Shown: positions 9,514 to 35,367, numbered from the stretch's first letter. The stretch: 64,000 bases of DNA from Sulfurimonas sp. (GCA_030247515.1 JAOTSA010000001.1:1255-65254), one strand, 5' to 3'. Translations and numbers: made by a program. The notes: generated by a model not told the origin, from the sequence alone.

Positions 9514-9547
9514 AAGTATTTAGGCTATACTTGTGAAGTTTAATTAT

Positions 9548-9661
9548 TAGACTTCTTGCATAACCTAAAAATTAGATTCCAAGTCAAGCTTGGAATGACG
9601 AGATTTGTGAGTTTTCGTCATCCTGAACTTGATTCAGGATCTAGGTTATGCAAGAAGTCTA
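9548..9661. repeat. Cloverleaf palindromic element (MITE/BIME-like) containing two inverted CGTC-type REP hairpins, copy 1
   Basis: Perfect 20-bp terminal IR (TAGACTTCTTGCATAACCTA 9548-9567 / 9642-9661). Internal hairpins ATTCCAAG-n5-CTTGGAAT and ATCCTGAA-n5-TTCAGGAT. Second copy at 52315-52425. Confidence 0.85.
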
Positions 9662-9682
9662 TTAAAAAAACAAGGAGAATAA

Positions 9683-9934: not shown

Positions 9935-10140
9935 TTTTGCTAATGGTTTTCGGGTAAGTTTAGAGGGTGTGGTTAGGCATCTTTTAAATTTTTTTCCGAA
10001 AAACTTATTCTTAAAAAACTCCTTTAAACCAAACTCAATCTAAATAGCCAAACTGACGATTAAGTCGCATATAATGTGTGTAAAGGCATAATGTTCCTAC
10101 TAAATTTTGTTATGTTAAAATAATTATAAGGTTGTGCTTC

Positions 10141-18414: not shown

Positions 18415-20129
18415 TGAATACGCCATTCCCAAAAAGTGAGAGTGTTGACGTTATGCTTTTTTCAGAGGGAACATATCCTTATGTCAAAGGCGGCGTCTCT
18501 TCTTGGCTTTTGCAGTTGATGAAAGGTTTGCCCGAGTACTCTTTTGGTGTCTGTTTCATAGGTGCGCAAGAGATAATGGATGGCAGAAAAATGGAGATAA
18601 GTTATGAGTTTCCGCCAAACCTAAAACATCTTGAAGTTCACTATCTTTTTGACAAAGATGATGCGATAGAACCACGACGCATAAAAGGGAGCAAAGAGGG
18701 TTTCGAAGCCGTCAAATCTCTCTACAACTCATTTATAAATTCTAACGCAAAAGGCATACCAAAAGTGCTTCAGAATGTTAGTTTTTATACGCATGATGTG
18801 ACGTTTAAAGATTTTTTATTTTCTGAACGTGCTTGGCAGTTTATAAACAAAGTATATATGAAAAATTGCCCCGACGTCCCTTTTGTTGACTATTTTTGGA
18901 CTTTGAGAAATATTCATAAACCGATTTGGATTTTAGCAGACATTGTAGAAAAATTGCCAGAAGCAAAGATTTTTCACTCTCCATCAACTGGTTATGCGGG
19001 GTTTTTGGGTGCACTCTCCTCTTACAACACAAACAGACCTTTTGTTCTGACTGAACACGGGATATATACAAGAGAGAGAAAGATAGATATGCTCTCGGCG
19101 GACTGGATAAGCTATAAAAAACCGAGTTTGCTTCAGCAGCCAGAAGAGTACAATTACATAAAAAAAATGTGGGTAAACTTTTTTGACAAAATAGGCGTTT
19201 TTTGTTATCACCGCTCTAACCATATCCTCTCTCTGTTTTCTGGTGCTCAAAAAATTCAGATAAGTTTTGGTGCAAATGAAAACCGTACGATGGTTATCCC
19301 AAACGGTGTTGATGTTGATACGCTTAGGGCGACAATGGTTCATCGAGAGGAGATTCCAAAACCCATCATAACCCTTATCGGAAGAGTTGTACCGATAAAA
19401 GATATCAAAACATTTATCCGTGCAATTAAAATTACGTCACAATTTATACCCGAAGTTGAGGGTTGGATTGTTGGTGCAGTGGATGAAGATGCCGCTTATG
19501 TTAGTGAGTGTCAACAGATGGCGATATCACTTGGACTGAAATCAAAAGTGCAAATATTTGATGGCAATAAGTCCGACATGACGGCAGAGGAGATAGAAGC
19601 GAGCAGCGATAAGATAAAATTATTTGGACATAGTGATATTAAAAAAATCCTTCCGAAATCTGCTCTTCAGACTTTGTCTTCCATCAGCGAGGGAATGCCG
19701 CTTGTTGTGCTTGAGGGTTTTGCGGCAGGTGTTCCCTGTGTGGCGACTGATGTTGGAAGTTGTCGAGATTTGGTTGAGGGCGGTATCGATGAAAATGACT
19801 TTGCTATAGGTTCTGCTGGTGCTATTACAGGTATTGCAAACCCTGAAGCATTGTCAAAACAGTATATCAGGCTCTTAAACTTTGAAAACGGTGATTGGAA
19901 AAGAGCGCAAGAAGCAGGGTTGCAAAGGGTTGAGAGATACTATAGACAAGAGCTGTTTTTGCAGGAGTACAGAGATATATATGACCAAGCCAAAGAGTTG
20001 ACTTGGGGAGAGCTAAAAATAAAAATATTTCCTTTTTATCTCCCAAAACAACCACCGCATGCAAAAGTAGTTCTGAGAAGATTTAAGATAAAAAGATTTA
20101 CTCTTGAACGAAAGAAAGAGGTGGTCTAA
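18414..20129 (+). CDS. pelF: PelF GT4 glycosyltransferase
   Basis: 'EGTYPYVKGGVSSW', 'STGYAG', 'TEHGIYTRER', 'GRVVPIKDIKTFI', 'SISEGMPLVVLE'. ATG at 18414 overlaps the pelE TGA. Confidence 0.95.
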   Translation: MNTPFPKSESVDVMLFSEGTYPYVKGGVSSWLLQLMKGLPEYSFGVCFIGAQEIMDGRKMEISYEFPPNLKHLEVHYLFDKDDAIEPRRIKGSKEGFEAVKSLYNSFINSNAKGIPKVLQNVSFYTHDVTFKDFLFSERAWQFINKVYMKNCPDVPFVDYFWTLRNIHKPIWILADIVEKLPEAKIFHSPSTGYAGFLGALSSYNTNRPFVLTEHGIYTRERKIDMLSADWISYKKPSLLQQPEEYNYIKKMWVNFFDKIGVFCYHRSNHILSLFSGAQKIQISFGANENRTMVIPNGVDVDTLRATMVHREEIPKPIITLIGRVVPIKDIKTFIRAIKITSQFIPEVEGWIVGAVDEDAAYVSECQQMAISLGLKSKVQIFDGNKSDMTAEEIEASSDKIKLFGHSDIKKILPKSALQTLSSISEGMPLVVLEGFAAGVPCVATDVGSCRDLVEGGIDENDFAIGSAGAITGIANPEALSKQYIRLLNFENGDWKRAQEAGLQRVERYYRQELFLQEYRDIYDQAKELTWGELKIKIFPFYLPKQPPHAKVVLRRFKIKRFTLERKKEVV

Positions 20130-21502
20130 TGGCTGGTATTGGTTTTGAACTAAGAAAAATACTTAAGGCAGATAGGATACTCTCACTTACAAAAGTGTAT
20201 GGCTACTCTGCGATACTAAGCTCTGGACCGTGGGTTATCTCCATCTTAGCAATCGTTTTGGTTGGTTTTATCAACTTGGCAAATATGGGAGAGGTGAGCG
20301 ATGCTTTTAGGTTTCAAGTCGTCATCACGTACGCTATTGCATTGGCATCAAGCCTCATCATTACAGGTATCTTGCAACTTCCTTTTACTCGCTATGTGGC
20401 GGACCTGATTTTTAACAAACGTGAAGATGAGATTTTACCATCCTATTTTGGCGCAATTTTTATGGCGTGGGCTTTGGGTTTGCCAGCGGTCATACCTTTT
20501 TATATCTGGGTGTTTGAAGAGCAGAGCGTCATATTTTTGATAGGTGTAGTCTGCACGTTTCTTATCCTTTGCGGTGTGTGGATTTCTAGTATATTGGCGG
20601 CAAGCCTAAAGTACTATCATGGCGTGGTTTGGGCTTATTTTGCGTCTTATGCGCTGATTGTGTTGTTTTCATACTACTTTGGTGATAGTATAGAGATGCT
20701 AATCTATGTGTTTTTTGCAGGAAATTCCATTTTGTTTGTAACATTGATGACGCTGATTATTAAGAGCTACAACTCAACTATATTTATGAAAATTCACTTC
20801 TTTTTAGCACCAAATTTTTACTGGACTTTGGGTGTGGCGGGGTTGGCATACAACCTTGGTGCATGGGTTGACAAGTTTATCTTTTGGTATCATCCTGCCA
20901 CGGGTCATACCGTCATAGGGAAGCTTAACGCATCTATAGTTTATGATATGCCGATATTTTTGGCTTATCTCTCCATTGTTCTTGGTATGGCAATCTTTTT
21001 TTATCGTTTGGAGTCAGATTTTGCTGAAAAATACGATTTATATTATGATGCAGTTAGAAGCGGCGGTACACTTAGTACCATAAAAAAATATAGAGATGAG
21101 ATGATAAACGTTATCCGTCATGCGGTTCATGAAATTCTTATGATACAAGGAATTTTGGATATTATATTATTTTTAACTGCGCCAACTGTTTTTGACTTAC
21201 TCAATATTCCTCAATTGTATTTGGGATTGCTTTATGTCCTAACTATAGGCGCAATGCTACAGATTGCATTTATGTCGGTTTTGGCTATTTTGTACTATTT
21301 GGATAGAAAAAAAGTCGCCATGTGGCTTTGTGTCAGCTTTTTTGTGGCTAACACGGTCTTGACGCTGGTGTCTATAGATATGGGACCTGCGATGTATGGG
21401 TATGGGTACACCGTCTCCCTTTTGTTGGTTTTGATGGCTGCTCTTATTGTCATTAGAAATGAGATGAACAGGTTGGATTATGAAACATTTATGTTGCAGT
21501 AA
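20129..21502 (+). CDS. pelG: PelG polysaccharide transport/flippase-like membrane protein
   Basis: 'MAGIGFELRK', 'SSGPW', 'WVDKFIFW', 'YDMPIFLAYL'. Confidence 0.96.
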   Translation: MAGIGFELRKILKADRILSLTKVYGYSAILSSGPWVISILAIVLVGFINLANMGEVSDAFRFQVVITYAIALASSLIITGILQLPFTRYVADLIFNKREDEILPSYFGAIFMAWALGLPAVIPFYIWVFEEQSVIFLIGVVCTFLILCGVWISSILAASLKYYHGVVWAYFASYALIVLFSYYFGDSIEMLIYVFFAGNSILFVTLMTLIIKSYNSTIFMKIHFFLAPNFYWTLGVAGLAYNLGAWVDKFIFWYHPATGHTVIGKLNASIVYDMPIFLAYLSIVLGMAIFFYRLESDFAEKYDLYYDAVRSGGTLSTIKKYRDEMINVIRHAVHEILMIQGILDIILFLTAPTVFDLLNIPQLYLGLLYVLTIGAMLQIAFMSVLAILYYLDRKKVAMWLCVSFFVANTVLTLVSIDMGPAMYGYGYTVSLLLVLMAALIVIRNEMNRLDYETFMLQ

Positions 21503-24043
21503 GTTTTTAACACTTTTTCTTTTATTGGCTACCTCTTTGCTGGCTTCACTTGGCGATAAAAGTGCGATTATGTACTATGGGAAGAGCATCTCTTACCCAA
21601 TGGTCGGCATCCATGACTACATCATCGTCAATCCAGAAAACACAAACACCATAACGCACGGATTTTCGGTCTATAAACATAAAATGTACGCACGCATTAC
21701 AGTTGGTACGAATGAACTCGAAAGTGTTACAGAAGCGAGACTTAAAGATGGGTTTGAAAACTTTTTTCTTGATATGCATGACGGTACATCAAAAAAGCAA
21801 GAGATAGCAAAATTTATAAAATCATTTCATGGACGCTATCCACAAAGCAAGCTTGTCGTCAATGGAAAATTTGATATTTCAGATGTTGCTGATGGCTCTA
21901 TAAATGCGGTCGTTCTTGATGCAGAACTGGATGCAAAATCAAAAGAGCAGAAGATAAAAAAAGCAAAATCTTACGGTGTGGACGTTATACAGGTAGGGTA
22001 TGTCTCAACAACGCAAAGCGACACAGTTCAAGAGAGCATAACCAAAGCGATGCAAGCGGGAGTTATCCCCTACTTTACAAATCCTGCTTTTGACATGTAT
22101 GGCAAATCCTCAAAAAATGCCATTAAGCGTGAGATTTTAACACTTATAGATGAGAGTAAAAATGACAGGATGGTTCTCTCTGCACATCAACACGGAGCGG
22201 TGGTTTTTGAGTACTTAGGCTATATCCAAAAGCTCCATAACGTCAACAAAGGTTTGCCAGATATAGAGAGCATGAAGCACTATGCGGGTGTTGTTGTCTG
22301 GCTAAGCAGGGATTATGAATCCCCTATAAAGCTTATAAACTGGGTGCTTGCACTACATAAAGAGGGTATTAAAGTAGCTTTTGCCGCTAGCTTTGGCTCT
22401 AGTGTTGATGGCATGCTTCTCAAACAGCTTGGGATAGACATGTACGACGGCGATACCGCATTGAGCAACAAAAAAACCATTATTCAAAGAGATGGGATGA
22501 TAGGTTTTGAGATAGAGCCGTCACTGAGCGATAACAGTGTATATCTCAACCCGAGCAACTCAAAACCGCTTTTAACCTATGAAGACACCAACAAACTCCG
22601 CTCTGTTCCATCAGCGATAACTCCTTGGGGCGGGTATGCAATCTCTGAATCTTTTATGCTTGAGCTTAATGATGAAAATATTTGGATAATCAACCCGTTT
22701 AAATTTTTTGCAGAAGCTTTGCGACTTGAAACTTTGCCAGTCCCAGATGTTACGACACAAAATGGAAACAGACTGCTTTTTACCCATATAGACGGCGATG
22801 GAATCATGAACTATGTCGAATCAAATCCTGAACTCTTCTCTGGTGATATGATTTTCGAAGAGGTACTCAAGCCATTTAAGATACCGCACTCCGTCTCTAT
22901 CGTTGGTGCTGAAGTTATGCCAGATGGGCTTTATCCTGAGCTATCAGAACAGTTGGTTGCCGTAGCAAAAAAGATGTATAGTTTAGAAAATGTAGAAGCC
23001 GCAACGCATACTTTTACGCATCCATTTATCTGGAAAAAGATTCAAAATGGCAATTTGAGTGATGAATATAGGCTTAAAGTAAAAAATTATGATTTTTCAC
23101 TAGATAGAGAGCTTGTTGGGACTTTGGCTTACATAAACGAAGAACTGGTACGCAGCGACAGACAAAAAGCAAAAACTGTTTTTTGGAGCGGGGATTGTGC
23201 GCCTATGGAAGATGTGTTGGCATACATATACAAGAACAACATACTTAACATCAACGGAGGTTATACGGTCATCAGCAACGCCAACCCGTGGCTGACAAAT
23301 GTCTCTCCACTGGGCTTAGAGCGTGGCGAATACTACCAAATATATACAGGTGCGCAAAATGAAAACGTCTATACGAACGATTGGCTTGGTCCGTTTTGGG
23401 GATTTAAAAAGGTGGTTCAAACATTTGAGTTGACAAACTCTCCACGCAGATATAAGCCATAAATGTCTATTATCATCACTACTCAGGCTCAAAAACTGCC
23501 TCCGTTAACGCTTTGAAGTATATTTTTAATTGGGCATTGCAACAAGATGTCATGCCTATTTTTACCTCTGAATATATTTTAAAAGTGATGGATTTTTATA
23601 CTGTTTCTATGGCTAGAGATAACGGGACGTGGCTATTTGATGGTATGAAAGAGCTGAAAACTATCCGCATAGAGGAGAAAAATGCGGCAGTGGATTTGGA
23701 CAAATCCTCATCAACGCTTGGTCTGAAACATTTTGAAAATCATACATATATAAGCTTGGATGAGGGCGTTAAGCACACTTTGAAAATAGATAAAAGTGCA
23801 AACTACAAAAAGAGAAGCTATCTTGTCTCATCAAACGCCAAAGCGGTAGAACATACACATGGGTCTAAAAATCAAACGATAAGATTTGAGGGACATGTCG
23901 ATTTAAAACTGACTTTCCACCTCCCAAAAGAGTGTACGCTTGATGTAACGCCAAAAAGTTATAAAACCATAGTCAATGGCGAAAATGTAAGCTTGGAATT
24001 TAAAAACAGTAAAAAGGCAGTTGTAAATGCATTATGTAGATAG
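21480..24043 (+). pseudogene. pelA: PelA paralogue 1: degenerate hydrolase domain plus intact CE4-like deacetylase, interrupted by a 1-nt deletion at about 23457-23459
   Basis: ORFs 21480-23462 and 23513-24043 align end to end with PelA2. Reads aag-cca-taa-atg-tc where the paralogue has aag-ccc-ata-gat-atc. Restoring one base gives about 854 aa. Confidence 0.85.
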
Positions 24044-25088
24044 TGAACATACTAAAAACTATGTCGTTACCTACAAAGAACTCGCTTTTATGTTTATCGT
24101 ATTTTGTACTATTTTGATTGTTTTGTACCCAAAAGATTTGCTTAAAGAGCAGATTTTATCGGAAAAATCTAACTATGATTTGAGTATGCTCTATCTTAGA
24201 ACACTCTTAGAACATGACCCTGAAAATGAGTCTTTGATGCTGATTTTGGCGGAACAGAGTCTAAGAACTGGTAAAAAAGACCTTTCGTTAAGACTGCTAG
24301 AACTTTTACTAAACAGTAAAAGTAAAAACTACAGAAACAAAGCCACGTTGTTAAGTTATGAGCTGAAAAAAGATGACTATTATTACATAAAAGATGAGCG
24401 TTTGTTGTATGAACAAAAAGAGGCACTCCGAAAACTTTTCCTTAAGATTGTAAACAATGAGATGTACACCGAGGAGAGTGTTGACTACTGGTACAATGAG
24501 TCGATTTTTTTACAAGAAGATGCGGCAATGTATCTTTTTGCAAAGAAAAAACTTCTCAAAGATGAGTCTAATGTAGCGTTGCTTGAAGTTGCATACTATC
24601 TCTCCTCAAAATTCCGTAAGCCTGAAGAGTCTTGGAGATTTATGGAACTTCTCACTAAGTATGATGAGGCAAGAAAAGACAAATGGATACTGGATGGGTA
24701 CTATATGCTTATCAACAATCAGCGTTATGATAAAGCTCAAGAGCTGCTATTTGAGCGTGCTGACAAATCCCCTGAGTGGAAAAACAGGCTTGCAGAGTTT
24801 TTACTCATGCGCCAACAGTACGTCAAGGCTTCAAACTTTTATATGGAGATGTTTGAAGCAACAAGCGAGTATGCTCAGAAGAAAAAATATTTTATGCAGG
24901 CGATGCATGCGTTGCAGGCTGGAAATGAGATGCAAAGAATCGCTACTCTAGCAAAAACACATGAAACACTCTTTATAAAGGATGTTGAGGTAAGAAAATT
25001 TTTACTTAAAGTTTATCTGGCTACAGGCAATTTAGATGCCGCTGCTGTTTTATCGAAAAAAATATTACAGAGAGAGAAAAAAAGATGA
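24027..25088 (+). CDS. PelB N-terminal-like protein (TM anchor + TPR), separate gene
   Basis: TM followed by 'LYPKDLL...DLSMLYLRTLLEHDPENESLMLILAEQ', resembling the PelB N-terminus. ATGA-coupled to the next gene. Confidence 0.7.
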   Translation: MHYVDSEHTKNYVVTYKELAFMFIVFCTILIVLYPKDLLKEQILSEKSNYDLSMLYLRTLLEHDPENESLMLILAEQSLRTGKKDLSLRLLELLLNSKSKNYRNKATLLSYELKKDDYYYIKDERLLYEQKEALRKLFLKIVNNEMYTEESVDYWYNESIFLQEDAAMYLFAKKKLLKDESNVALLEVAYYLSSKFRKPEESWRFMELLTKYDEARKDKWILDGYYMLINNQRYDKAQELLFERADKSPEWKNRLAEFLLMRQQYVKASNFYMEMFEATSEYAQKKKYFMQAMHALQAGNEMQRIATLAKTHETLFIKDVEVRKFLLKVYLATGNLDAAAVLSKKILQREKKR

Positions 25089-28000
25089 AAATAGTACTTT
25101 TTATATTTTTTGCATTTATATCCGTTTTTGCGCAGTCCGAGGAGACTTGTTACACCGTGCAGTTGACCAGTAGTGACAATACAGAAAAAAATCTACACAC
25201 ACTGCAAAACAACAACTATCCGCAGTCATGTGAAGTAATGCAAATCGGCGAATCTATCACTGTTAGATGTGGCTGTTTTGAGAAAAAATCTTTAGCACAA
25301 GAGAGACAAACAGAGCTTAAAAAAGAGTATCCAAATGCTGCTATTGTCAACACATATAGATACAGATTTGATGCAAAAGTGCAAAAAGCCGCAGAGTTGT
25401 CAACTGTAGAAAAAATCATCCTCTCTCCAAAAATACCAAAAAAAGATGTGTCAAAAAGTGACGCTGACAAGGCAAAAGAGTCTAAAGAGACTTGCTACAC
25501 TGTTCAACTGGTAAGCGTAAATAACACAAGTAAAAATTTGGATGTATTGAGTAAGAGTACCTTCCCACAAAACTGCAAAGCAATGGAGATAGGCAATACG
25601 CTTACAGTAAGATGTGGCTGTTTTGAAAAAATATCTTTGGCAAACGATGAGCAAAAAGTGCTTCAAAAAGAGTACCGTAACGCCGCTGTAGTCAGTACGT
25701 ACAAATACAGATTTGATGAAGAAACTATTTTTGAGTCAAGCAGAGAAAAAAAAGAGGATAAAGAGGAAAAAGAGGGGAAGAGCAAAGTAACTATTGCTAG
25801 AGAAGAGAGTAGCCAAAAAGAGGAAAAAAAAGGGAGCGAGGAGAAAAAAGACAAAGCGGTATCAAGGCTTCATGAAGAGAAGATAGAAGCTGTTGAGCAG
25901 GAAAAAAACTTTGTACCAGCGGACTTGGCGTATGATGATGAAGAGCTAAGACTTATGATGCAGGTTTTTTTAGGAAAAGGCGATTTGGAATCTGCTTATG
26001 AAGTGGCGTCTAAAGGTTATAGCAAAACACCTCATTCATACTATTGGAACCAAAAAATGGCGGAGATTTGCCAATGGACAAATCGTTCGGCAAGGTCCAT
26101 GAAACACCTTCGATTTATGTATGAAGTCAAATACGACCCAAAAATAGAGCAGGAACTGATAGAGTACGGTTCAGAATCTTACCAGTATGAAGAGATAGAA
26201 CCTCTTGTTGTGAACAGAGCATTAAGAGAACCTACGGAAAAAAATATTGACCTTATGATTCTTGTTTACAAAGAGATAGGCGAGCCTGAAAAGGTGGTAA
26301 AAGTACTAGAGACACAATACTACAAAGATACAACAAACACCATTTTGCTAACAAAAGCTTTGGAGCTAAGTCTTGAGATAGGCAACATGGAGTTGGTACA
26401 AAAATTTGTCAACATTCTTGAGCAAAAGAAGCCATATACAAAAAAAGATGCCTCTTTAATCGCACGTTATTATTACATTACAAATGAGATTGCAACTGCT
26501 TATAAAAGTTTGTTAGAGACGGATGAGTCAAAAATCGTTGATGAGCAAGAAAATATAAAATATTATCAGCTAAAAAGTGACTTAGGCTGGTATCTGCAAG
26601 AAAATGTGAATGCGGCGGCGGCTTCTAGGTACTTGATGGAGATAGAAAAAGCACGTTTTGTGGATTATGAACGCATAAGTTTCGTTTATCAAAAAAAAGA
26701 CCCAGAATTTGCGGCAGGTGCGGTAAAAAAAGCGTATCGTGAACATAAAATCTCCTATCTCTTTTACAGTTTTGCAAATGAGGCGATAAACCTTAAGCAG
26801 TATGATGTGCTAAATGCGTTGATAGAAGAGTTTGATGCAGAGGAGACCCCTTTTGAGGAGGAATCTCTCTACTGGATTATCAAATCAAAAGTTTATGCGT
26901 ACTATGAAAAGAGGGATTTGGAAAAGGAGGCTTTGCTTAAAGCTCTTGAGTTAGACCCAGAAAATTATCAGATTAAACTTGCCCTCTTATGGTTTTTTAT
27001 GGATATCAGCGATGCTCAAAATGTCAGAATGATTTTAACTGATATGTCTGAAAACAAGGAGCTTGGCGCAAGTTTTTATCTCCCAATAGCATCAGCCTAT
27101 TTTTATCTTCATGATATAAACAGAGCCTCATACTATACACAGCAGCTTCTTGCGATGAATGATTCTGTTATAGAGCTTACGCAGTTTAAGTTTTTGCAAG
27201 CGTATATCTACCAGATACAAAACAACGAACCAGCTTTCATGAGTTATATGAATAAAATCGTTTCAGATTTAAAAGAGGAAGCGGAGTTAAGTCCTGGACT
27301 AGAGAAACAAGATGAGCATCTCTCCAACTATCTTCGTGCAGGTATGCATGTGTGGCATCCTGACAAGTTTGAGAACAAACTTGCAAAAGCCAAAGAGTAT
27401 CTGAGTGAAGAAAACTACAATGAGATAGCCTATTCTTGGGCAGTAAACAACAGTGCTTATGAAAAAAGTTTCAAAATCTACCATAAGATGAACAAAAAAG
27501 AGTTGTGGGTAAGGTTTAGCAACGATACCATTGCGCAAGACCATACTGGGATTGAAAATCTGATGGATTGGTACTTGGAGAGCCTCTCCATGGGTGATGT
27601 GTCGCAAGCATCTTATAAAGATGGACAAAAAGCACTCTCTCAAACGATTACATTTGAGGGCTTACTGACAAACGATGATAACCAGAATGCTTACATACAA
27701 CACAGAGATTTGAGCAAAGAGCGTTCAGATTTGTTTGAAACAAAACTTGCCCACTCCAACAGAGACCCATTGGTGCAAAAATCTTCACAGTTGCAAAATC
27801 GTGCTTATTTGCAAAAAGGGTACTATCTTTATACTGGATTTGACTATTTTTCTAACTCTACTTTGAATGAGAGGTTGCTCCAAAATGTTCCACAGCATAC
27901 ACTTGAAGCTGATATGGGGCTAAGAAAGATATACGACAGAGGGTATCTGGAGGGGCATGTGGAGTTCCATGACTCTATGGAGAGCTATTTGGGCTTCTCT

Positions 28001-28642
28001 CTTTTAGGGCATTACCAGTGGAGTACGGACATCATAACGGATATGGCATTTGCGAAAAATGCAAATGCGACTGAGGCTACACAGCTTCTTTTGGGCGGCA
28101 AAAAAGATATGCTCTCTTTAAACCTGCTTTGGAATTTTCTGGACTCCACCTCTTTTGAAGTTTTGTATGAGCAAAGCCGCTATGCTTCACAAGACGGAGT
28201 TCATCTAGGTAATGGAGCATATACCCGCTACTCTCTTAACAGGCAGATAAGAAACGGCTATCCAGATATGAGGGTAGGTCTTTTTCATGATGTAGGCAGA
28301 TACAATGAGCAATCGGACTCTAAAGGCGTTATAGATAAACTGCAAATTCAAAACAATCCTGTATTGCCAGAAAATTTCGCCAATATAGGGTTGAGTTTTG
28401 CTTATGGAATGGCAAACGCTGAAGCATATACTCGTGTATGGCGACCATATTTTGAATTTTACCCTTACTACAACAAGACTTTAGGCGACTACACATACGG
28501 TGCAATCGCAGGATATGGCGGCAAGGTATGGCATCAAGACCACATGTCCGTAGGTGCTTCTTATACAGACTCTGTAAACGGTGTCGGCGGAAACTCTTTT
28601 GAACTGTTTTTAAAATACCAATTTATGTACTACCATCCTTAA
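25085..28642 (+). CDS. pelB: PelB-like TPR + outer-membrane beta-barrel export protein with two N-terminal SPOR-like domains
   Basis: Signal peptide; two C-YTVQL...TVRCGCFEK modules; K/E linker; 'FLGKGDLESAY...W' PelB-type TPRs; beta-strand-rich C-terminus. Confidence 0.8.
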   Translation: MKIVLFIFFAFISVFAQSEETCYTVQLTSSDNTEKNLHTLQNNNYPQSCEVMQIGESITVRCGCFEKKSLAQERQTELKKEYPNAAIVNTYRYRFDAKVQKAAELSTVEKIILSPKIPKKDVSKSDADKAKESKETCYTVQLVSVNNTSKNLDVLSKSTFPQNCKAMEIGNTLTVRCGCFEKISLANDEQKVLQKEYRNAAVVSTYKYRFDEETIFESSREKKEDKEEKEGKSKVTIAREESSQKEEKKGSEEKKDKAVSRLHEEKIEAVEQEKNFVPADLAYDDEELRLMMQVFLGKGDLESAYEVASKGYSKTPHSYYWNQKMAEICQWTNRSARSMKHLRFMYEVKYDPKIEQELIEYGSESYQYEEIEPLVVNRALREPTEKNIDLMILVYKEIGEPEKVVKVLETQYYKDTTNTILLTKALELSLEIGNMELVQKFVNILEQKKPYTKKDASLIARYYYITNEIATAYKSLLETDESKIVDEQENIKYYQLKSDLGWYLQENVNAAAASRYLMEIEKARFVDYERISFVYQKKDPEFAAGAVKKAYREHKISYLFYSFANEAINLKQYDVLNALIEEFDAEETPFEEESLYWIIKSKVYAYYEKRDLEKEALLKALELDPENYQIKLALLWFFMDISDAQNVRMILTDMSENKELGASFYLPIASAYFYLHDINRASYYTQQLLAMNDSVIELTQFKFLQAYIYQIQNNEPAFMSYMNKIVSDLKEEAELSPGLEKQDEHLSNYLRAGMHVWHPDKFENKLAKAKEYLSEENYNEIAYSWAVNNSAYEKSFKIYHKMNKKELWVRFSNDTIAQDHTGIENLMDWYLESLSMGDVSQASYKDGQKALSQTITFEGLLTNDDNQNAYIQHRDLSKERSDLFETKLAHSNRDPLVQKSSQLQNRAYLQKGYYLYTGFDYFSNSTLNERLLQNVPQHTLEADMGLRKIYDRGYLEGHVEFHDSMESYLGFSLLGHYQWSTDIITDMAFAKNANATEATQLLLGGKKDMLSLNLLWNFLDSTSFEVLYEQSRYASQDGVHLGNGAYTRYSLNRQIRNGYPDMRVGLFHDVGRYNEQSDSKGVIDKLQIQNNPVLPENFANIGLSFAYGMANAEAYTRVWRPYFEFYPYYNKTLGDYTYGAIAGYGGKVWHQDHMSVGASYTDSVNGVGGNSFELFLKYQFMYYHP

Positions 28643-28662
28643 AAAAGAAAAAAGAGAGCTTA

Positions 28663-31410
28663 ATGAATTGTTACTATTGTTGTAGATTTCTGTTTGTGTT
28701 TTTGTTTTTCACTGCATCACTTTTTGGTGCGCTTACAGATAAAAGCGTTATGGTTTACTATGGAAAAAATATCTCCTATCCAATGGTTGGGAGTGCTGAT
28801 TATATTATCGTGCAGCCTGAGCTTATCAACACAAAGAGCCATGGTTTTGGCGTTTACAAAGAAAAAATGTACGCATATGTAAGTGTTGGTGAGATAGACA
28901 GAAACATCAAAGAGTATAAAAATATACAAAAAAGCTGGATACTCGCCGAGAACAAAGCGTGGGCAAGTGATGTTTTGGATATAAAAAATGAAGAGTATCA
29001 AAAGTATCTCTTTGAAGTGATGATAGAACCCAGAATGAAAGCTGGGTTTAAAAACTTCTTTTTTGACACACTGGACTCTTATCAGTTGGCATGCAAAACA
29101 AAAGAAGACAGAGCGGCAAACGAGAAGGCTCTAGCCTCTTTTATAAACCTTTTTCATCAAAAGTATCCAGATGCAAAGCTAATCATCAACCGTGGTTTTG
29201 AAATCATCGAGAGTGTCCATGAGGCAGTGGAAGCGGTTTTGTTTGAATCCTACTTCATGGGAGTTGGCGGCGAAAAACTAGCTTACAAAGAGGTCACGGA
29301 TGAAGATAGAAAATGGCTTGATATTCATATAAATAAAATAAAATCATACGGCAAAGATGTCATAAGTTTGGAGTATTTGGACCAAAAAGATATGGCAAAG
29401 GCATCAGCTATTGTAGAAAAAGTAAAATCACGTGGAATGATTCCTTATGTTGCAAACCGTGAGCTTGACATGTATGGCATCTCTTCTAAAAATGCCATGA
29501 AACGTGAAGTTCTGACTTTGGTTAGTGAGGAAAAATACGACAAAGTATATAGTGACGCACATCGGTATGGTGCTTTGGTGTTGGAGTATATGGGCTACAT
29601 CCAAAAGCTGCATGACGTTAGAAAAGCTTTGCCTAAAATCGATGAGATACGACACTATGCGGGTGTTATCGTCTGGCTTGATGATGAGTACAAAGACCCA
29701 GAAAAGTTGATGTTATGGGTAAAAAGTGTAGCGTCACTTGGGATAAAAGTAGCGTTTGTGGATAATTTTGGAGCAAAAACAGATGATCCTGCTTTGGAGA
29801 TTTTGGGTATCAGCATAGATAAAAACGTAAAAAATATAAAGAAAATTCTACATCGGCATGCTATGATGGGTTTTGAAATTCAACCATCCTACCCACGCTC
29901 CTCCATGCAAATTTACTCAAAAATCAAAGAACCTTTACTCGTTTATGAAAATACAGACGGCACAACAACCGCTCCCGCAGCACTAACAGAGTGGGGAGGG
30001 TATGCACTCAAAGAGGCAAATATGTTGAGCATGAACGAGGATCATTTATGGGTTATAAACCCTTTTGAGTTTTTTGCCTCTGCACTCGGTCTTAAACCTC
30101 TTTTAGTACCAGACCCAACAACCCAAAATGGAAACAGACTGCTTTTTTCACATATAGACGGAGATGGAATTATGAACAGAGTTGAGGGAAACTCTGAACA
30201 TTTTTCTGGCGAGGTGGTTTTAGAAGATATTTTAAAAAAATACAAGATACCTCACTCTGTCTCTCTTGTAGGCGCAGAGATTGACAAGAATGGACTCTAC
30301 CCAGACATAGCGGACAAACTACAAGCTATCTCAAAAGAGATGTATAAACTCGAAAATGTAGAAGGGGCGACACACACTTTTACACACCCTTTTATATGGG
30401 GAAAAATTGTAAACAACACACTGGACGAACAGTACAGACTTAAAGTAAAAGGTTATAGTTTTTCCATAGAGCGGGAGATTTCTCAAACGCTTGATGATAT
30501 AAGCTCTCAGCTCTCACCGACACATAAACCCAAAGCAAAAACAGTTTTTTGGTCAGGAGATTGTTTGCCGCAAGAAGATGTGTTGGAGTATGTTTACTCA
30601 CATGATATTTTAAATATAAATGGCGGAGATACCCAGATAACAAAGATGAACCCTTGGCTCTCAAACATAGCATCGTTTGGTGTAGAGAGAGGAAGCTACT
30701 ATCAGATATATACAGGCGCACAAAATGAAAATATATATACAAATAACTGGTTAGGACCATTTTGTGGCTTTAAAAGGGTTGTCCAGACATTTGAACTTAC
30801 CAACTCTCCACGCAGATTTAAGCCCATAGATATCTACTACCACATGTACTCTGGTTCAAAAATGGCTTCACTTAAAGCGTTAGAGTATGTATTTGACTGG
30901 GCTATAAAACAGGATGTTATGCCTATCTTTACCTCCGAGTATATCCCTAAAGTGATGGACTTCTACACCGTTTCAATGGCAAATGATGGTGATGAGTGGT
31001 TGGTGGAGGGTATGAGGGATTTAAAAACGCTCCGCATAGAGAAAAAAGAGGCATCCGTTGACTTTGAATACTCCAAATCAACGGCAGGCTTAAAACATTT
31101 TGAAAATCACACCTATCTTAGTTTGGGTAATTCGCAGAAGCACTTTATAAAGGTAGATAAAAGCAAGGGTTACAAAAAAAGGAGCTATCTTGTCTCTTCC
31201 AACGCTAACATTACAGAGCATAAAAGTGAATCAAAGTCACAAAGCATCTCTTTTGACGGACATGTAGATTTGCGGCTAAGTTTTAGGATACAAGATAACT
31301 GCAAACTAACCTCCCAACCACAAGCAAGCCAGATACGCAAAGATAAAGAGATAACCTTTCTGGAGTATAAAGGTGTGAAAAAGGCGGGTATAAGCATTGT
31401 TTGCGAGTGA
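28663..31410 (+). CDS. pelA: PelA paralogue 2: bifunctional GH166/GH114-like hydrolase and deacetylase
   Basis: 'YAYVSVGE', 'FFDTLDSY', 'NRGFE', 'LFESY' (hydrolase); 'HIDGDG', 'THTFTHP', 'WSGDC', 'NINGG' (deacetylase). Confidence 0.92.
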   Translation: MNCYYCCRFLFVFLFFTASLFGALTDKSVMVYYGKNISYPMVGSADYIIVQPELINTKSHGFGVYKEKMYAYVSVGEIDRNIKEYKNIQKSWILAENKAWASDVLDIKNEEYQKYLFEVMIEPRMKAGFKNFFFDTLDSYQLACKTKEDRAANEKALASFINLFHQKYPDAKLIINRGFEIIESVHEAVEAVLFESYFMGVGGEKLAYKEVTDEDRKWLDIHINKIKSYGKDVISLEYLDQKDMAKASAIVEKVKSRGMIPYVANRELDMYGISSKNAMKREVLTLVSEEKYDKVYSDAHRYGALVLEYMGYIQKLHDVRKALPKIDEIRHYAGVIVWLDDEYKDPEKLMLWVKSVASLGIKVAFVDNFGAKTDDPALEILGISIDKNVKNIKKILHRHAMMGFEIQPSYPRSSMQIYSKIKEPLLVYENTDGTTTAPAALTEWGGYALKEANMLSMNEDHLWVINPFEFFASALGLKPLLVPDPTTQNGNRLLFSHIDGDGIMNRVEGNSEHFSGEVVLEDILKKYKIPHSVSLVGAEIDKNGLYPDIADKLQAISKEMYKLENVEGATHTFTHPFIWGKIVNNTLDEQYRLKVKGYSFSIEREISQTLDDISSQLSPTHKPKAKTVFWSGDCLPQEDVLEYVYSHDILNINGGDTQITKMNPWLSNIASFGVERGSYYQIYTGAQNENIYTNNWLGPFCGFKRVVQTFELTNSPRRFKPIDIYYHMYSGSKMASLKALEYVFDWAIKQDVMPIFTSEYIPKVMDFYTVSMANDGDEWLVEGMRDLKTLRIEKKEASVDFEYSKSTAGLKHFENHTYLSLGNSQKHFIKVDKSKGYKKRSYLVSSNANITEHKSESKSQSISFDGHVDLRLSFRIQDNCKLTSQPQASQIRKDKEITFLEYKGVKKAGISIVCE

Positions 31411-31450: not shown

Positions 31451-31481
31451 TTGACAATTATACACCGTGCGGTGTATAATT
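31451..31481 (+). promoter_or_regulatory. Sigma70 promoter (TTGACA-18-TATAAT) with a perfect 12-bp inverted-repeat operator (TA autoregulation)
   Basis: TTGACA 31451-56; TATAAT 31475-80; AATTATACACCG-tg-CGGTGTATAATT 31456-31481. Confidence 0.85.
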
Positions 31482-31496
31482 TTAAAAAGGATACTC

Positions 31497-31751
31497 ATGC
31501 ATAGAATACAAACAAGTTTGCGTCTTGATGCCGATAAATTTTTGGAAGCAAAAGAGATACTTAAAAATCTCGGACTAAATTTTACTGATGCAGTCAATAT
31601 TTTTACAAGTCTGGTCGTTGCAAACAAAGGGTTGCCTTTTGAAGTAAAAATGCCAAGCAAAAAGCTTCAAAAATCTATGGATGAGCTAGAAAATAGAGAC
31701 GGCAAAAGCTTTAAAAACGTAGATGAACTTTTTGAAGATTTAGACAATTAA
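31497..31751 (+). CDS. dinJ: RelB/DinJ-family antitoxin
   Basis: RHH-type 'TSLRLDAD..EAKEILKNLGLNFTDAVNIF...KGLPFEVK'. ATG at 31497 with AAGGA SD. Confidence 0.9.
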   Translation: MHRIQTSLRLDADKFLEAKEILKNLGLNFTDAVNIFTSLVVANKGLPFEVKMPSKKLQKSMDELENRDGKSFKNVDELFEDLDN

Positions 31752-32020
31752 TGTACACTCTTTTTAGAACAACATCTTTTAAAAAACAGTATAAAAAACT
31801 ATCTCTCGTTGAGCAACAGTTATTAAAAGAGGTAGTTGCTATTTTAGCAGATGGTAAACAGCTTGACCAAAAATACAAAGATCATAAGTTAATAGGCAAT
31901 TTTAAAGACTTGAGAGAATGCCATATAAAACCAGATCTTCTTTTGATATATAAAATAGATAACGATATTTTAGAATTAGTTCTCGTTCAAGTCGGAAATC
32001 ACGGTTCTCTTTTTAACTAA
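31751..32020 (+). CDS. yafQ: YafQ-family mRNA interferase toxin
   Basis: 'FKKQYKK', 'YKDHKLIG', 'RECHIKPDLLLIY', 'GNHGSLF'. Confidence 0.92.
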   Translation: MYTLFRTTSFKKQYKKLSLVEQQLLKEVVAILADGKQLDQKYKDHKLIGNFKDLRECHIKPDLLLIYKIDNDILELVLVQVGNHGSLFN

Positions 32021-32038: not shown

Positions 32039-33055
32039 CTATATTTTAGAGTCATACCCGTCTGGATTTTGTGATTGCCATCTCCAACTGTCTTCACACA
32101 TCTCTTCTACCCCTTTTTGGGCTCTCCAGCCTAAAACTTCAAACGCATAGCTAGGGTCTGCAAAACATTTTGCTACATCGCCAGCTCTTCTTGGTGCTAT
32201 TTTGTAAGGGACTTTTTTGCCAGATGCTTTTTCAAATGCTTTTACCATGTCCAAAACAGAGTAACCCTTTCCCGTACCGAGATTGACGGTAAGCACATTT
32301 TGTACGTTGTCCATATTTTGCAACGCTTTGACATGTCCAAGTGCTAAATCTACAACATGGATATAGTCTCTGACACCCGTACCGTCATGTGTATCATAGT
32401 CATCGCCAAAAACGCTTAAAAACTCTCTTTTTTGTACCGCCGTTTGTGAAATGAATGGCATGAGGTTGTTTGGTATGCCGTTTGGGTCTTCCCCTATTAA
32501 GCCAGATTTGTGTGCGCCAACTGGGTTGAAGTAGCGAAGAAGTATGATTTTGTACTCATTGTCGCTTACATATAAATCACGCAAAATCTCCTCTATAAAG
32601 AGTTTTGTTCTGCCATAAGGGTTTGTTGCAGAGAGTGGAAAATCCTCTTTGATTGGCGTTGTGTGCGGGTCGCCATAGACAGTAGCCGATGAGCTAAATA
32701 CTATTTTTTTGCAGTTGTTTTCCTGCATAACTTGGCATAAAACCAACGTTCCGCTGATGTTGTTGTCGTAGTAGTGCAGAGGTATAGTAACTGATTCGCC
32801 AACCGCTTTTAAACCAGCAAAATGAATCACAGAATCAATCTTATAGGTATCAAAAACACTCTGCAAATCCTGCTTGTTGCGTATGTCTCCCTGATAAAAT
32901 GGGATTTTTTTGCCGATGATTTTTTCTACTCTTGCCAAACTCTCTTGAGAGGAGTTGCATAGATTGTCAAAAACTACAAAATCAAAACCCGCTTCATGTA
33001 GAGATATGCACGTGTGTGAGCCGATATAACCAGCTCCCCCTGTTACTAAGACCAT
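32039..33055 (-). CDS. galE: UDP-glucose/UDP-GlcNAc 4-epimerase
   Basis: 'TGGAGYIG', 'FSSSATVYG', 'YGRTK', 'LRYFNPVGAH'. ATG at 33055 with GGTAGGAG SD. Confidence 0.96.
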   Translation of the reverse strand: MVLVTGGAGYIGSHTCISLHEAGFDFVVFDNLCNSSQESLARVEKIIGKKIPFYQGDIRNKQDLQSVFDTYKIDSVIHFAGLKAVGESVTIPLHYYDNNISGTLVLCQVMQENNCKKIVFSSSATVYGDPHTTPIKEDFPLSATNPYGRTKLFIEEILRDLYVSDNEYKIILLRYFNPVGAHKSGLIGEDPNGIPNNLMPFISQTAVQKREFLSVFGDDYDTHDGTGVRDYIHVVDLALGHVKALQNMDNVQNVLTVNLGTGKGYSVLDMVKAFEKASGKKVPYKIAPRRAGDVAKCFADPSYAFEVLGWRAQKGVEEMCEDSWRWQSQNPDGYDSKI

Positions 33056-33109
33056 AAAATCTCCTACCCTGTTAATGTGAGTTTTATTGTACAAAGAATA
33101 TACTTAGAT

Positions 33110-33925
33110 ATGATAAAAATCATTAAAAAAATGCTCTTAGAGCCACTTTTTCATTTTCTGCTTGTTGGTTTTGCCTTGTATCTTTTTTATGAAAGCGTCT
33201 CAGCCAAAGAGGTGCGAAGTGCCAATGTCATTGAGATTTCGCAGGAGGAACTGGGAGAGATAGAGGCACAGCACAAAAAAGAGTTTCAAACTGACATAAG
33301 CCAAAGGGAGCGAGAGGCTCTCGTACAAAAAAAATATTATGAGAAGATACTTTTAAACGAGGCTTACTCACTTGGGCTTGAGAGACAGGATAAAGAGATT
33401 GCCAAAAGATTGCTCTCACAGATGCAGCATATCTTAAGAGGTGTGGCGGTGGCAGAGCCGAGTGAGGAGCTTCTTAAGAACTACTTTAAAAAACACAAAA
33501 ACGACTACTCAGTTGTCAATACTCTCTCTTTTTCTCACATCTATTTTTCAAACTCTCAAGGGGTTGGCGATACTCTCAAAACATTGCAGATAGCAGATGT
33601 AAAACCGCATGACGCAGCCTTCTTTGGCGAACAAACTACTGCAAATCATATAAAAAACATCACTTTTGATGATGCAAAAGAGGTGTTTGGAAGTTATTTT
33701 ACTCTTAAGCTTTTTAACTTAAAACAGGGAAAGTGGCATAAGCCCATTCAGTCAAAAGATGGTGTGCATCTAGTCTATATAACGGACAAAAATGTCTCCG
33801 AAGCTTATGTTTTTGATGAGATTCAAGAGCGGGTTTATGATGATTATATGCAAGAAGCAAGAGAGACAAAAGAGAGTGAGGCATATAAAAAGATAAGCTC
33901 TCAATACCTGCTTGAAGTGAAGTAA
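33110..33925 (+). CDS. PpiC-type peptidyl-prolyl isomerase (Rotamase_2 family)
   Basis: 'EPLFHFLLVG', 'EAYSLGLERQD.EI..RL', 'FSHIYF', 'WHKPIQSKDGVHLV'. Typical partner of HupE/UreJ genes. Confidence 0.8.
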   Translation: MIKIIKKMLLEPLFHFLLVGFALYLFYESVSAKEVRSANVIEISQEELGEIEAQHKKEFQTDISQREREALVQKKYYEKILLNEAYSLGLERQDKEIAKRLLSQMQHILRGVAVAEPSEELLKNYFKKHKNDYSVVNTLSFSHIYFSNSQGVGDTLKTLQIADVKPHDAAFFGEQTTANHIKNITFDDAKEVFGSYFTLKLFNLKQGKWHKPIQSKDGVHLVYITDKNVSEAYVFDEIQERVYDDYMQEARETKESEAYKKISSQYLLEVK

Positions 33926-34900
33926 TGGTAGTAAAGTTCCTTCTTTTTTTTATGATTTTTATGGGCGAAATCCTCTTGGCTCATCAGACGGGTTTATCAT
34001 TTGTGGATATAAAAGAGGATGATGAAAAAAAGATTTCTGTCGTCTATAAAAAACCTCTTGAAGATACACGGGCGACAGATATAGAGATTCGTTTTCCTTC
34101 AAAATGTGCCTATGTATCGCAAAACAGACAAGTTTTAGAAGATGGTTATGTGGTAAAGAGCTTTGCGTTGTGGTGTACGCAAGATGGTCTTGCAAACTCC
34201 CGTATTTGGGTTGAGGGGCTGGTCTCAAGCGATAGAGGTGTTTTGGTTCGTTATGAAAATGGCTCTCATGTTGAAAATGCGTTGCTTAGTGCCACCACGC
34301 CATTTATGCATGTGGATAAAAAAAGCGGAAATTTTGCTCTGGCACTTGAGTATATAAAACTGGGGATTGTCCATATTTGGGGCGGGTTTGACCATCTGCT
34401 TTTTGTACTCTCTTTGGTACTTTTGGCTCACAGCACAAAAGCTCTTTTGTATAGCATCACGGGTTTTACTCTTGCACACTCCATCACTCTTGCGTTTGGG
34501 GTTTTGGGTATCGTAAATGTCGCAGCGGCGTTTGTGGAAGCCATGATAGCTTTGAGTATCGTCTTTTTGGCACGGGAACTTGTGGTGCATGACGTAAACT
34601 CTCTTACCCGCAGAAAACTCGGACTCATCGCTTTTATCTTTGGTTTGCTCCACGGTTTTGGTTTTTCAAGCGTCCTAAAAAGCATAGGTCTGCCTCAAAA
34701 TGAGATACCGCTCTCCCTGTTTTGCTTCAACCTCGGCATAGAGATAGGTCAGATTCTCTTCATAATTTTGATGAGTACCACTCTTGCAATGGCTCAAAAA
34801 TATCTTTATGCAAACAAAGAAAAAACAAAAAAAAATCTTAGCTTACGGCATCGGCACAATCTCCTCTTTTTGGTTTGTCGAGAGAGTGCTAGCCTTTTAA
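33925..34900 (+). pseudogene. HupE/UreJ-family membrane protein, frameshifted by one extra A in an A9 tract (34827-34835) so that it reads through into gspG
   Basis: 'HIWGGFDHLLF', 'FTLAHSITL', 'GLLHGFGF', 'FNLGIEIGQ'. The shifted frame gives the natural end ILAYGIGTISSFWFVERVLAF* (TAA 34898-34900). Confidence 0.8.
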
Positions 34901-34902
34901 TT

Positions 34903-34911
34903 TGGTATAAT
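34903..34911 (+). promoter_or_regulatory. Extended -10 promoter (TGgTATAAT) for the T2SS operon
   Basis: TGGTATAAT lies just after the inferred hupE stop; AAAGGCGG SD precedes ATG 34936. Confidence 0.6.
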
Positions 34912-34935
34912 AAACAAAAAAATAAAGGCGGATTT

Positions 34936-35367
34936 ATGCGAAAAAAATCAAGAAGTGCATTTTCGCTAATAGAGCTTATGATAGTTGTCCTTATTTTGGG
35001 GTTGCTTGGGGCTATGGTTATGCCTAGTCTAACGGGTAGAGGTGAAGAGGCGAAGCGCAATCTTGTGTGTGTGCAGATGAAGAGTATCTACAACAGTTCG
35101 CTTGATATGTTTAAGATAGACAACGGCATGTACCCATCAACGGTGCTGGGGCTTGAGGCTCTCTCCCTAAACCCTGATGCGCAGCTCTATCCAAACTACT
35201 CAAAGGCGGGCTATTTCAAAGACGGAAAAATCCCAAAAGATTCTTGGGGCGGTAAGTTTATTTATGTAAATGATGAGGGCAAAATCGAGATTATCTCTTT
35301 GGGTGCTGACAAAAAAGAGGGCGGTACGGATGAATCCGCCGATATCAAAATGAGCGAGTGTAAATAG
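34936..35367 (+). CDS. gspG: Type II secretion major pseudopilin
   Basis: 'AFSLIELMIVVLILGLL', 'LDMFKIDNGMYPST..GLEAL', 'PKDSWG', 'SLGADKKEGG'. Confidence 0.92.
   Translation: MRKKSRSAFSLIELMIVVLILGLLGAMVMPSLTGRGEEAKRNLVCVQMKSIYNSSLDMFKIDNGMYPSTVLGLEALSLNPDAQLYPNYSKAGYFKDGKIPKDSWGGKFIYVNDEGKIEIISLGADKKEGGTDESADIKMSECK

Follow-up and report, generated by a model that had tools for sequence, protein, structure and literature searches.

Why would one pel operon encode PelA twice? In Pseudomonas aeruginosa, the deacetylase of PelA is required for Pel production, and the hydrolase determines only the amount of low-molecular-weight secreted Pel (PMC9894940, PMC10269871). The Pseudomonas hydrolase also changes biofilm mechanics (PMC12022489, PMC9894940, PMC10269871). 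The question is raised by a stretch of 64,000 nucleotides from Sulfurimonas sp. (GCA_030247515.1, JAOTSA010000001.1:1255-65254), the whole of which is called the window below. Two PelA homologues were found on its plus strand, PelA1 (A1), which begins at 21480, and PelA2 (A2, 28663-31410), at the ends that the initial annotation had given them. We think it likely that, at the family level, A1 is a deacetylase-only PelA with a scaffold barrel and A2 is bifunctional, with the two activities set separately. In the window itself, the A1 frame is broken by a deletion of one nucleotide.

Sequence comparison of PelA1 and PelA2

All the motifs quoted earlier for the two copies are present in their translations. 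A1 carries FFLD (aa 95-98), NGKFD (128-132), VVLD-AE (from 144), HIDGDG (436-441), and THTFTHP (509-515). A2 carries FFFDTLDSY (132-140), NRGFE (176-180), LFESY (193-197), HIDGDG (497-502), and THTFTHP (570-576). Both copies keep the deacetylase motifs IDGDG and THTFTHP, as had been noted. Read through as one protein, A1 has 854 aa and A2 has 915 aa; the difference of 61 aa agrees with the shortening of about 60 aa that had been seen in the A1 barrel. In the global alignment, this gap is made up of three deletions in the N-terminal barrel of A1 (37, 11, and 16 aa), net of a 3-aa insertion in A1 further on.

The alignment with P. aeruginosa PelA (PaPelA) that had been suggested was run. A2 matches, and both Asp residues of A1 align to catalytic positions. 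The register is fixed by the E218A variant structure 5TSY, and the earlier pairing of A1 and A2 motifs proved to be one register off. The Asp of FFLD in A1 corresponds to the catalytic Asp of FFFD in A2 and to PaPelA D160, and the Asp of VVLD corresponds to PaPelA E218. With the corrected register, the case for a dead hydrolase in A1 rests on non-conservation across the family and on deleted loops, not on those two residues. The residue replacements cited in the initial annotation do not hold, as the A1 of the window keeps acidic residues at both catalytic positions.

A Pfam match to the GH114 clan was obtained for A2 only. The Pfam search of the window proteins gave no match at all for A1, so the identification of its domains rests on the Protein Data Bank (PDB) search and the fold. 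A1 matches PelA of P. thermotolerans (PtPelA, 9CGY) from residue 90 onward only, and A2 matches it over the full length. The similarity of A2 to the GH166 structure 5TCB extends over the whole domain (A2 aa 28-275). In A2, D135 (29065-29067) is equivalent to PaPelA D160 and E195 (29245-29247) to PaPelA E218. This pair is invariant in 44 A2-type proteins, and D135, N176, R177, and E195 are all invariant in 43. In A1, neither the catalytic pair nor the motifs FxDTLDS, NRGFE, and ES are maintained (76 A1-type proteins). On these features, A2 is predicted to be an ordinary member of the PelA family (GH166 and CE21), and A1 is predicted to be a CE21 member that falls outside GH166.

Predicted structures

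AlphaFold2 (AF2) models were obtained for the read-through A1 (pLDDT 86.6, pTM 0.90) and for A2 (pLDDT 86.4, pTM 0.89). The A1 model compares with 9CGY at TM scores of 0.80/0.83. Its N-terminal domain is modeled as a complete (β/α)8 barrel, in which eight strands alternate with seven helices. Three elements of the A2 model have no counterpart in A1. After β3, it lacks the insertion that corresponds to A2 77-105 and bears the invariant W92, N97, W100, and D106. After β4, it lacks a short helix next to the catalytic Asp, and after β6, a β-hairpin next to the catalytic Glu. In the predicted structures, these three elements are catalytic-face loops, and the A1 barrel is without the full set of them. 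A strongly conserved stretch of A1, aa 26-72, is common to A2.

Residue conservation and selection in relatives

The database search, with read-through A1 as the query, gave two length classes. In the A1 class (about 75 clusters), the proteins are 835-866 aa long and, save two exceptions, have no Pfam match to the GH114 clan. The A2 class comprises about 44 clusters of 890-934 aa with this match. Several pairs have contigs of equal length and thus seem to come from one contig each. Judged by the best matches, the host of the window is a Sulfurospirillum-like member of the Campylobacterota. The closest relative of A1 is from a metagenome-assembled genome (MAG) of Sulfurospirillum (79% identity), and the other relatives are from Sulfurimonas, Sulfurovum, Arcobacter, and similar bacteria.

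The roles of the deacetylase residues were taken from PMC12022489 in PaPelA numbering. In PaPelA, the CE21 site consists of the base D528, the metal triad D530/H600/H604, the activating H526, E723, and the catalytic acid H761 (PMC12022489). All seven are present in the read-through A1 and in A2. Across the A1-type proteins, H526, D528, H600, E723, and H761 occur without exception (76/76), and D530 and H604 are kept in 75/76; all seven are invariant in the A2-type proteins (44/44). The hydrolase residues D160, D163, N199, R200, and E218 are 100% conserved in the A2-type. Among the 76 A1-type proteins, the E218 position is occupied by E in 28, by D in 23, and by another residue in 25, and none keeps R200. 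In the barrel core, 2 of 123 columns are at least 90% conserved in A1 (58 A1-type proteins), compared with 58 of 187 in A2. Outside the barrel, the two are equally conserved (34% of columns). Identity between genomes is about 40% for the A1 barrel and about 60% for each of the rest of A1, the A2 barrel, and the rest of A2.

The ratio of nonsynonymous to synonymous substitution (dN/dS) was computed against two orthologous loci. A1 as a whole gave 0.065-0.09, which means purifying selection; its barrel gave 0.13-0.20 and the remainder of the protein 0.05-0.07. The A2 barrel gave 0.05-0.065, so that constraint on the A1 barrel is looser by a factor of about 2-3, yet clearly short of neutrality. 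A check of whether relatives keep both copies with dN/dS below 1 had been suggested: the pair was found in 16 loci, and dN/dS was below 1 against the two orthologous loci. The orthologues do not combine a single pelA with neutral decay of A1.

Gene order and reciprocal loss

Gene order was compared in 71 loci from species-representative genomes. The order C-D-E-F-G-A1-TPR-B-A2 was found in 16 of them, where the gap between A1 and A2 is constant (about 4.1-4.5 kb) and holds the TPR gene and pelB. Every A1-type locus with enough flanking sequence also carries A2 (16/16), so that the two copies are retained together. Another 23 loci, each with 8 kb or more of upstream sequence, have just one PelA, which is fully bifunctional and occupies the A1 slot directly after pelG. 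This suggests that the copy in the ancestral position degenerated and that the copy after pelB kept the ancestral character. In all pair loci but one (15 of 16), the A1 orthologue is intact over its full length. The split A1 of the remaining locus, L058, was considered as a second frameshift and rejected; nearly every pel gene is fragmented in this pilon-polished contig, and the split was treated as an assembly error. Recent gene conversion between A1 and A2 of the window was also rejected. Their synonymous difference is saturated (pS 0.56-0.97) in every segment of 60 codons, which indicates an old duplication without recent conversion.

In two Sulfurimonas MAGs, the deacetylase site is damaged in A2. 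The A2 of L007 has D530A, a deleted motif 2, and a length about 59 aa shorter (L007 16666-19240), and the A2 of L038 has D530N, H600N, and H604D (L038 5326-8056). The adjoining A1 keeps the metal ligands in both loci. These two A2 proteins look like hydrolase-only PelA. Subfunctionalisation predicts such reciprocal losses, here of the deacetylase triad from A2 with that of A1 kept.

In a bioreactor study, metatranscriptome contigs span pelD through A2, including A1 with an intact frame, at low depth. Both pelA1 and pelA2 are transcribed in this related population, a finding that applies to that population and not to the strain of the window.

Other duplications of pelA

A neighbor-joining (NJ) tree was built from 636-644 shared columns and rooted on PtPelA; its deep branches are very short. 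Within-genome sister pairs were recovered with a bootstrap of 100/100 each for L027 with L022/25/30, for L063, and for L071. In L027 and L059, the loop-deleted copy lies after pelB and the intact copy after pelG, so that the roles are reversed relative to the main A1/A2 pair. The barrel of the loop-deleted copy is shortened at the three places where A1 has its deletions. The degenerate barrel of L027/L059 has 40-45% identity to its own partner clade versus 12-32% to the main A1, which suggests an independent origin of the hydrolase degeneracy. L063 has a pelA-pelA tandem (6828-12423), the second copy of which has a full-length barrel with TDHKA in place of DDNRE. L071 also has a pelA-pelA tandem (9958-15388), with both copies intact; the 10 kb upstream of it showed no further pel gene.

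Further observations were made in these loci. The degenerate copies are located at L027 3662-6203 and L059 2118-4673, and L022 and L025 come from the same MAGs. The degenerate PelA of L027 is followed by a second TPR353-like gene. In L074 (1816-5726), PelC-like and PelD genes are tandemly duplicated upstream of an otherwise single-PelA operon.

The frameshift in PelA1

A1 had been taken for one intact gene. In the window, it is not one open reading frame (ORF): one base is missing from a Pro codon, and because of this the frame closes at TAA 23460-23462 after 660 aa. Translation and alignment to A2 showed that the remaining 194 codons are stop-free in another frame (23459-24043). The window reads AAG CC ATA, where a Pro codon CCC or CCT is reduced to CC at 23457-23458. 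Two metagenome contigs that are >99% identical, X2 (groundwater) and X3 (wastewater), read AAG CCC ATA, with an extra C behind 23456. The related metatranscriptome contig X15 reads AAG CCT ATA, with an extra T behind 23458. The X1 contig alone reproduces the CC allele, at a word depth of 12.4 and with no variant reported in the Logan assembly; since assembled contigs drop rare variants, a mixed population of CC and CCC is possible at this site. The A1 codons downstream of the break have a dN/dS of 0.07 against the orthologues and show no decay, which indicates that the frameshift is very recent. The deletion is the loss of one base in the Pro codon and is specific to one population. A programmed frameshift or phase variation at 23457-23459 was considered and rejected, given a C run of 2-3 nt, no slippery heptamer, and in-frame CCC or CCT in other populations.

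The C-terminal β-sandwich domain falls in the shifted frame, as does the His of YYH (codon 23474-23476) that corresponds to the catalytic acid. This His is H666, the equivalent of PaPelA H761, and it lies five codons past the break, where a core strand of the deacetylase fold begins. As encoded in the window, A1 lacks the complete CE21 site, with H666 and the C-terminal domain in the other frame. Without the catalytic acid and this domain, it is probably a null allele. Because the frameshift comes before the catalytic acid, the split of activities is probably not operating in this strain, and A2 must then do both jobs.

It is unlikely that the frameshift is a sequencing or assembly error and that A1 is intact and functional in this organism. 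An error would account for the intact frame in X2, X3, and X15, for the 194 downstream codons without decay, and for a difference of a single base within a short C run. However, the Logan assembly of X1 gives the same CC allele at its word depth without a variant, and a run of 2-3 C is not a typical hot spot of short-read errors.

The barrel of PelA1

The reduction of the A1 barrel to a minimal structural scaffold fits the data better than a specific sugar-binding module. In the latter case, the barrel would be catalytically dead and would bind Pel specifically, feeding the polymer to the deacetylase in the manner of a carbohydrate-binding module (CBM), like CBM114 of Bacillus cereus PelA_DA. 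The domain length is constant (about 178 aa), the barrel is complete in the model, and the dN/dS of 0.13-0.20 means constraint; PelA_DA also provides a precedent for a non-catalytic N-terminal binding domain (PMC13254593). However, with 2/123 core columns at least 90% conserved in 58 orthologues, the lack of conserved core residues argues against a specific sugar-binding role. In addition, the deleted loops are those that bear the A2-invariant W92, N97, W100, and D106 and the β6 hairpin, and the conserved aa 26-72, common to A2, need not face the groove. We consider such a binding module unlikely.

It is very improbable that the barrel is still an enzyme with altered specificity or mechanism, for example through a D98/D147 pair. 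In the A1 of the window and in close relatives, β4 and β6 still each have an Asp at the end, and the residue at the E218 position is acidic in 51/76. However, the barrel core has no position conserved across the family, the equivalents of R200 and N199 are lost, and the loops of the substrate groove are deleted.

We give hardly any credence to the idea that A1 is a decaying pseudogene copy of pelA and the pair a transient duplication: the A1 of the window is frameshifted, its barrel evolves 2-3 times faster than that of A2, and it has no Pfam match, but the orthologues are intact in 15/16 pair loci and about 75 database clusters, dN/dS stays at 0.065-0.09 over the whole gene and at 0.07 past the frameshift, the deacetylase residues are kept (five of them in 76/76 A1-type proteins, two in 75/76), near-identical strains have an intact A1 frame, and the deacetylase site lost in two genomes belongs to A2, not A1. 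Decay holds at most for this one A1 allele and is contradicted at the family level. The sequences of the relatives support the A1/A2 pair as a conserved, selected arrangement and not as decay.

Proposed division of labor

From these comparisons, we infer the loss of the hydrolase in A1, the retention of its deacetylase, and a physiological division of labor. The pelA gene would have been duplicated in one lineage of Campylobacterota, comprising Sulfurospirillum, many Sulfurimonas, and related MAGs. An ancestral operon C-D-E-F-G-A-TPR-B would have become the derived C-D-E-F-G-A1-TPR-B-A2. A1, in the ancestral slot, would have kept the four-domain PelA architecture and all CE21 catalytic residues. 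Its GH166 barrel would have lost three catalytic-face loops together with the conserved catalytic and substrate-binding residues. A1 is then most likely a deacetylase-only PelA, in which the barrel persists as a structural scaffold. A2, added after pelB, appears to keep both activities.

Pseudomonas PelA docks on PelB through its deacetylase and α/β domains (PMC12022489), and in the passages of the same paper drawn on here, PelB is reported to regulate or enhance the deacetylase (carbohydrate esterase) activity of PelA. In this scheme, A1 would join the export complex as a partner with deacetylase activity only. A2, encoded at the operon end, would supply chain cleavage and redundant deacetylation, and the two activities would be uncoupled. 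The cell could then set the cleavage of Pel chains independently of the deacetylation needed for export. A1 overlaps pelG by 23 nt, and the start of the TPR353 gene overlaps the end of the intact A1 by 17 nt, which suggests translational coupling; A2 is preceded by a 20-nt gap. In the strain of the window, A1 is probably null, and A2 alone would supply both activities, as in the relatives with a single PelA.

The subfunctionalisation proposed in the initial annotation is upheld at the family level. Two of its details are not: the variable barrel core (2/123 columns) speaks against a binding-only domain in A1, and A2, proposed as a hydrolase/dispersal enzyme, is not hydrolase-only here but appears fully bifunctional.

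Several points weigh against this division of labor. The A1 of the window keeps Asp at both catalytic positions (D98 and D147), and residual or altered activity is possible. The frameshift was seen only in the window and the X1 contig, and a sequencing error is possible. The comparative loci are mostly MAG contigs; the deviant L007, L038, and L059 may hold assembly errors, and L058 clearly does. The NJ bootstraps are weak, at 13/100 for the monophyly of A1 and 25/100 for an A1+A2 clade. A clean A1/A2 phylogeny was sought and abandoned, as the NJ tree does not resolve the deep order. With such bootstraps, it is the deletions and the gene order held in common, not the tree, that speak for a single duplication.

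A broader idea can be put forward only tentatively. The fusion of hydrolase and deacetylase may be a conflict that Campylobacterota have resolved repeatedly, through at least three independent duplications, each with one hydrolase-degenerate copy. These would be the main A1/A2 pair, the L063 tandem, and L027/L059, where the intact and the degenerate copy have exchanged slots. The same three loops would have been lost convergently in two of the three, and the hydrolase copy of two genomes would have lost the deacetylase site. That the outcome recurs points to selection and not to accident. If this is true, the ratio of PelB-bound deacetylase-only PelA to hydrolase-competent PelA would set Pel chain length and thereby the balance of cell-bound and released polymer. 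The frameshifted A1 allele of the window would then be a natural reversion to a single working enzyme.

Pel is a widespread biofilm polysaccharide, and PelA is the most thoroughly studied of the enzymes that modify it. The loci described here are predicted to provide a series of natural separation-of-function variants, namely a deacetylase-only A1, a bifunctional A2, the hydrolase-only A2 of L007 and L038, and the A1-null allele of the window. All of them are open to direct expression and assay, and they reveal which parts of the barrel the rest of the protein can do without. The hosts are environmental sulfur-cycling bacteria, and the interest is mechanistic and evolutionary, not medical.

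The operon and its neighborhood

The pel operon occupies 15295-31410 on one strand, with genes that overlap or are closely spaced according to the ORF calls and Pfam. Its order is pelC-like, D, E, F, G, A1, TPR, pelB, A2. The genes pelD, E, F, G, A, and B are all adjacent; they were identified by Pfam, except PelA by PDB search and pelE by position only. The features are listed in Table 1.

Table 1. Features of the pel locus, in positions of the window
Feature	Position	Strand	Basis
PelC-like protein, 173 aa, first gene of the conserved operon	15295..15816	+	Pfam LpoB E 0.006, below gathering score
pelD, c-di-GMP receptor type	15843..17204	+	Pfam PelD_GGDEF E 1.4e-11
pelE-like membrane/TPR protein	17194..18414	+	Position between pelD and pelF; weak TPR matches; kept in related loci
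pelF glycosyltransferase	18399..20129	+	Pfam DUF3492 E 4e-83 and GT4 domains
pelG	20129..21502	+	Pfam PelG E 1.3e-126
PelA1 5' frame, 660 aa, TAA 23460-23462	21480..23462	+	PtPelA 9CGY match E 3e-104
A1 degenerate hydrolase-like domain, aa 26-203	21555..22088	+	AF2 model, alignment to A2, family variation
A1 deacetylase motif 1 HIDGDG (= PaPelA H526, D528, D530)	22785..22802	+	Family alignment
A1 deacetylase motif 2 THTFTHP (= PaPelA H600, H604)	23004..23024	+	Family alignment
Frameshift site, G CC A TAA, Pro codon one base short	23456..23462	+	Sequence and contig comparison
PelA1 remainder, shifted frame, 194 sense codons, stop 24041-24043	23459..24043	+	Translation, alignment to A2
353-aa membrane-anchored TPR protein (TPR353), putative split-off N-terminal PelB-like part	24027..25088	+	Pfam TPR_19
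pelB, TPR region and outer-membrane β-barrel	25085..28642	+	Pfam B-barrel_PelB_C E 3.7e-35, TPR_15
PelA2, full-length, predicted bifunctional, 915 aa	28663..31410	+	9CGY E 5e-128, 5TCB E 2.9e-33
A2 GH166-type hydrolase domain, aa 26-267	28738..29463	+	PF03537 E 2e-15; 5TCB/5TSY alignment
UDP-hexose 4-epimerase-like gene adjoining the operon	32039..33094	-	Pfam Epimerase/GDP_Man_Dehyd

An ORF homologous to the 173-aa PelC-like protein precedes pelD in most related loci. From the sub-threshold match and the synteny, we infer that this ORF would be PelC. The TPR353 gene sits between pelA and pelB in nearly all related loci. A homologue of the epimerase adjoins the pel operon in many related loci, and the epimerase-like gene is likely the supplier of UDP-GalNAc.

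The PelB of the window is split into the 353-aa membrane-anchored TPR protein and a protein of 1185 aa (24027-28642). The latter starts with two Cys-containing repeats of about 78 aa (ETCYTVQL...RCGCFEK...YRYRFD; about 60% identity), followed by a Lys/Glu-rich linker, the TPRs, and the barrel. These Cys repeats look SPOR-like by eye and gave no Pfam match. The PelB orthologue of the Sulfurospirillum MAG is 141 aa shorter (1044 aa), and the number of repeats may vary.

Between A2 and the epimerase gene, an ORF for a RelB/DinJ-like antitoxin (31467-31751, 94 aa) is followed by an ORF for a YafQ/RelE-like toxin (31751-32020, 89 aa). A perfect 12/12 sigma-70 consensus promoter lies ahead of them at 31451-31480. 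The syntenic locus L001 has Pfam matches to RelB and YafQ_toxin at the same place, and L003 has none; the toxin-antitoxin genes therefore look like an inserted pair. Upstream of the operon (10132-15264) are genes for a CotH-kinase-family protein (559 aa), a protein with PycTM (Pycsar effector transmembrane) and DUF3616 domains (512 aa), and a Porin_O_P protein (653 aa). L001 has these three genes ahead of its pel operon as well. In a 480-aa ORF at 33925-35367, a HupE/UreJ membrane domain occurs together with a prepilin N-methylation motif and a GspG-like pseudopilin domain of type II secretion; this could be an uncommon fusion, or two genes could have been joined.

Comparison with known systems

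A2 resembles PelA of P. aeruginosa and P. thermotolerans (5TCB, 9CGY; PMC12022489) in its full-length match and in D160, E218, H526, D528, D530, H600, H604, E723, and H761. A 2025 paper on PelA found both the hydrolase and the deacetylase sites to be conserved in full-length homologues, those of epsilonproteobacteria among them. The A1 model shares the four-domain architecture of Pseudomonas PelA and has all deacetylase residues. Unlike Pseudomonas PelA, its barrel is shaved of loops and without conserved catalytic residues. Unlike the Pseudomonas pelABCDEFG operon, with one PelA at the 5' end, the window has two copies flanking pelB at the 3' end.

In the literature searched, no description was found of PelA paralogues, of pelA1/pelA2, or of pel in Campylobacterota; the matches to pelA1/pelA2 were pectate lyases of Clavibacter. 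Against this literature, the A1/A2 arrangement is new, and the enzyme family itself is known. The passages found in Bundalovic-Torma et al. 2020 (PMC7112194) describe pelA moved relative to pelB, fission of pelB, and duplicated pel operons. TPR353 and PelB of the window fit the 'pelB fission' type of these passages, which contain no in-operon PelA pair, hydrolase-degenerate copy, or epsilonproteobacterial case.

In the Gram-positive pelDEA_DA FG locus of B. cereus (PMC7112168, PMC13254593), deacetylase and hydrolase are on different polypeptides, which are not paralogues. A1 can be likened to PelA_DA (CE26 and CBM114), whose N-terminal domain is non-catalytic and which is needed to make Pel. 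Unlike A1, which belongs to CE21, PelA_DA is a three-domain, membrane-anchored CE26 protein. The Gram-positive loci also differ in that A1 would be a recent derivative of a full-length PelA that retains a relic of the hydrolase barrel, and in that its partner A2 keeps both activities in most genomes. The galactosaminogalactan cluster of Aspergillus fumigatus (Agd3, CE18; Sph3, GH135; Ega3, GH114) likewise has separate genes for deacetylation and for α-1,4-(N-acetyl)galactosaminidase activity on a GalNAc-rich exopolysaccharide. Its proteins, unlike A1 and A2, are eukaryotic and unrelated, with no common bifunctional ancestor.

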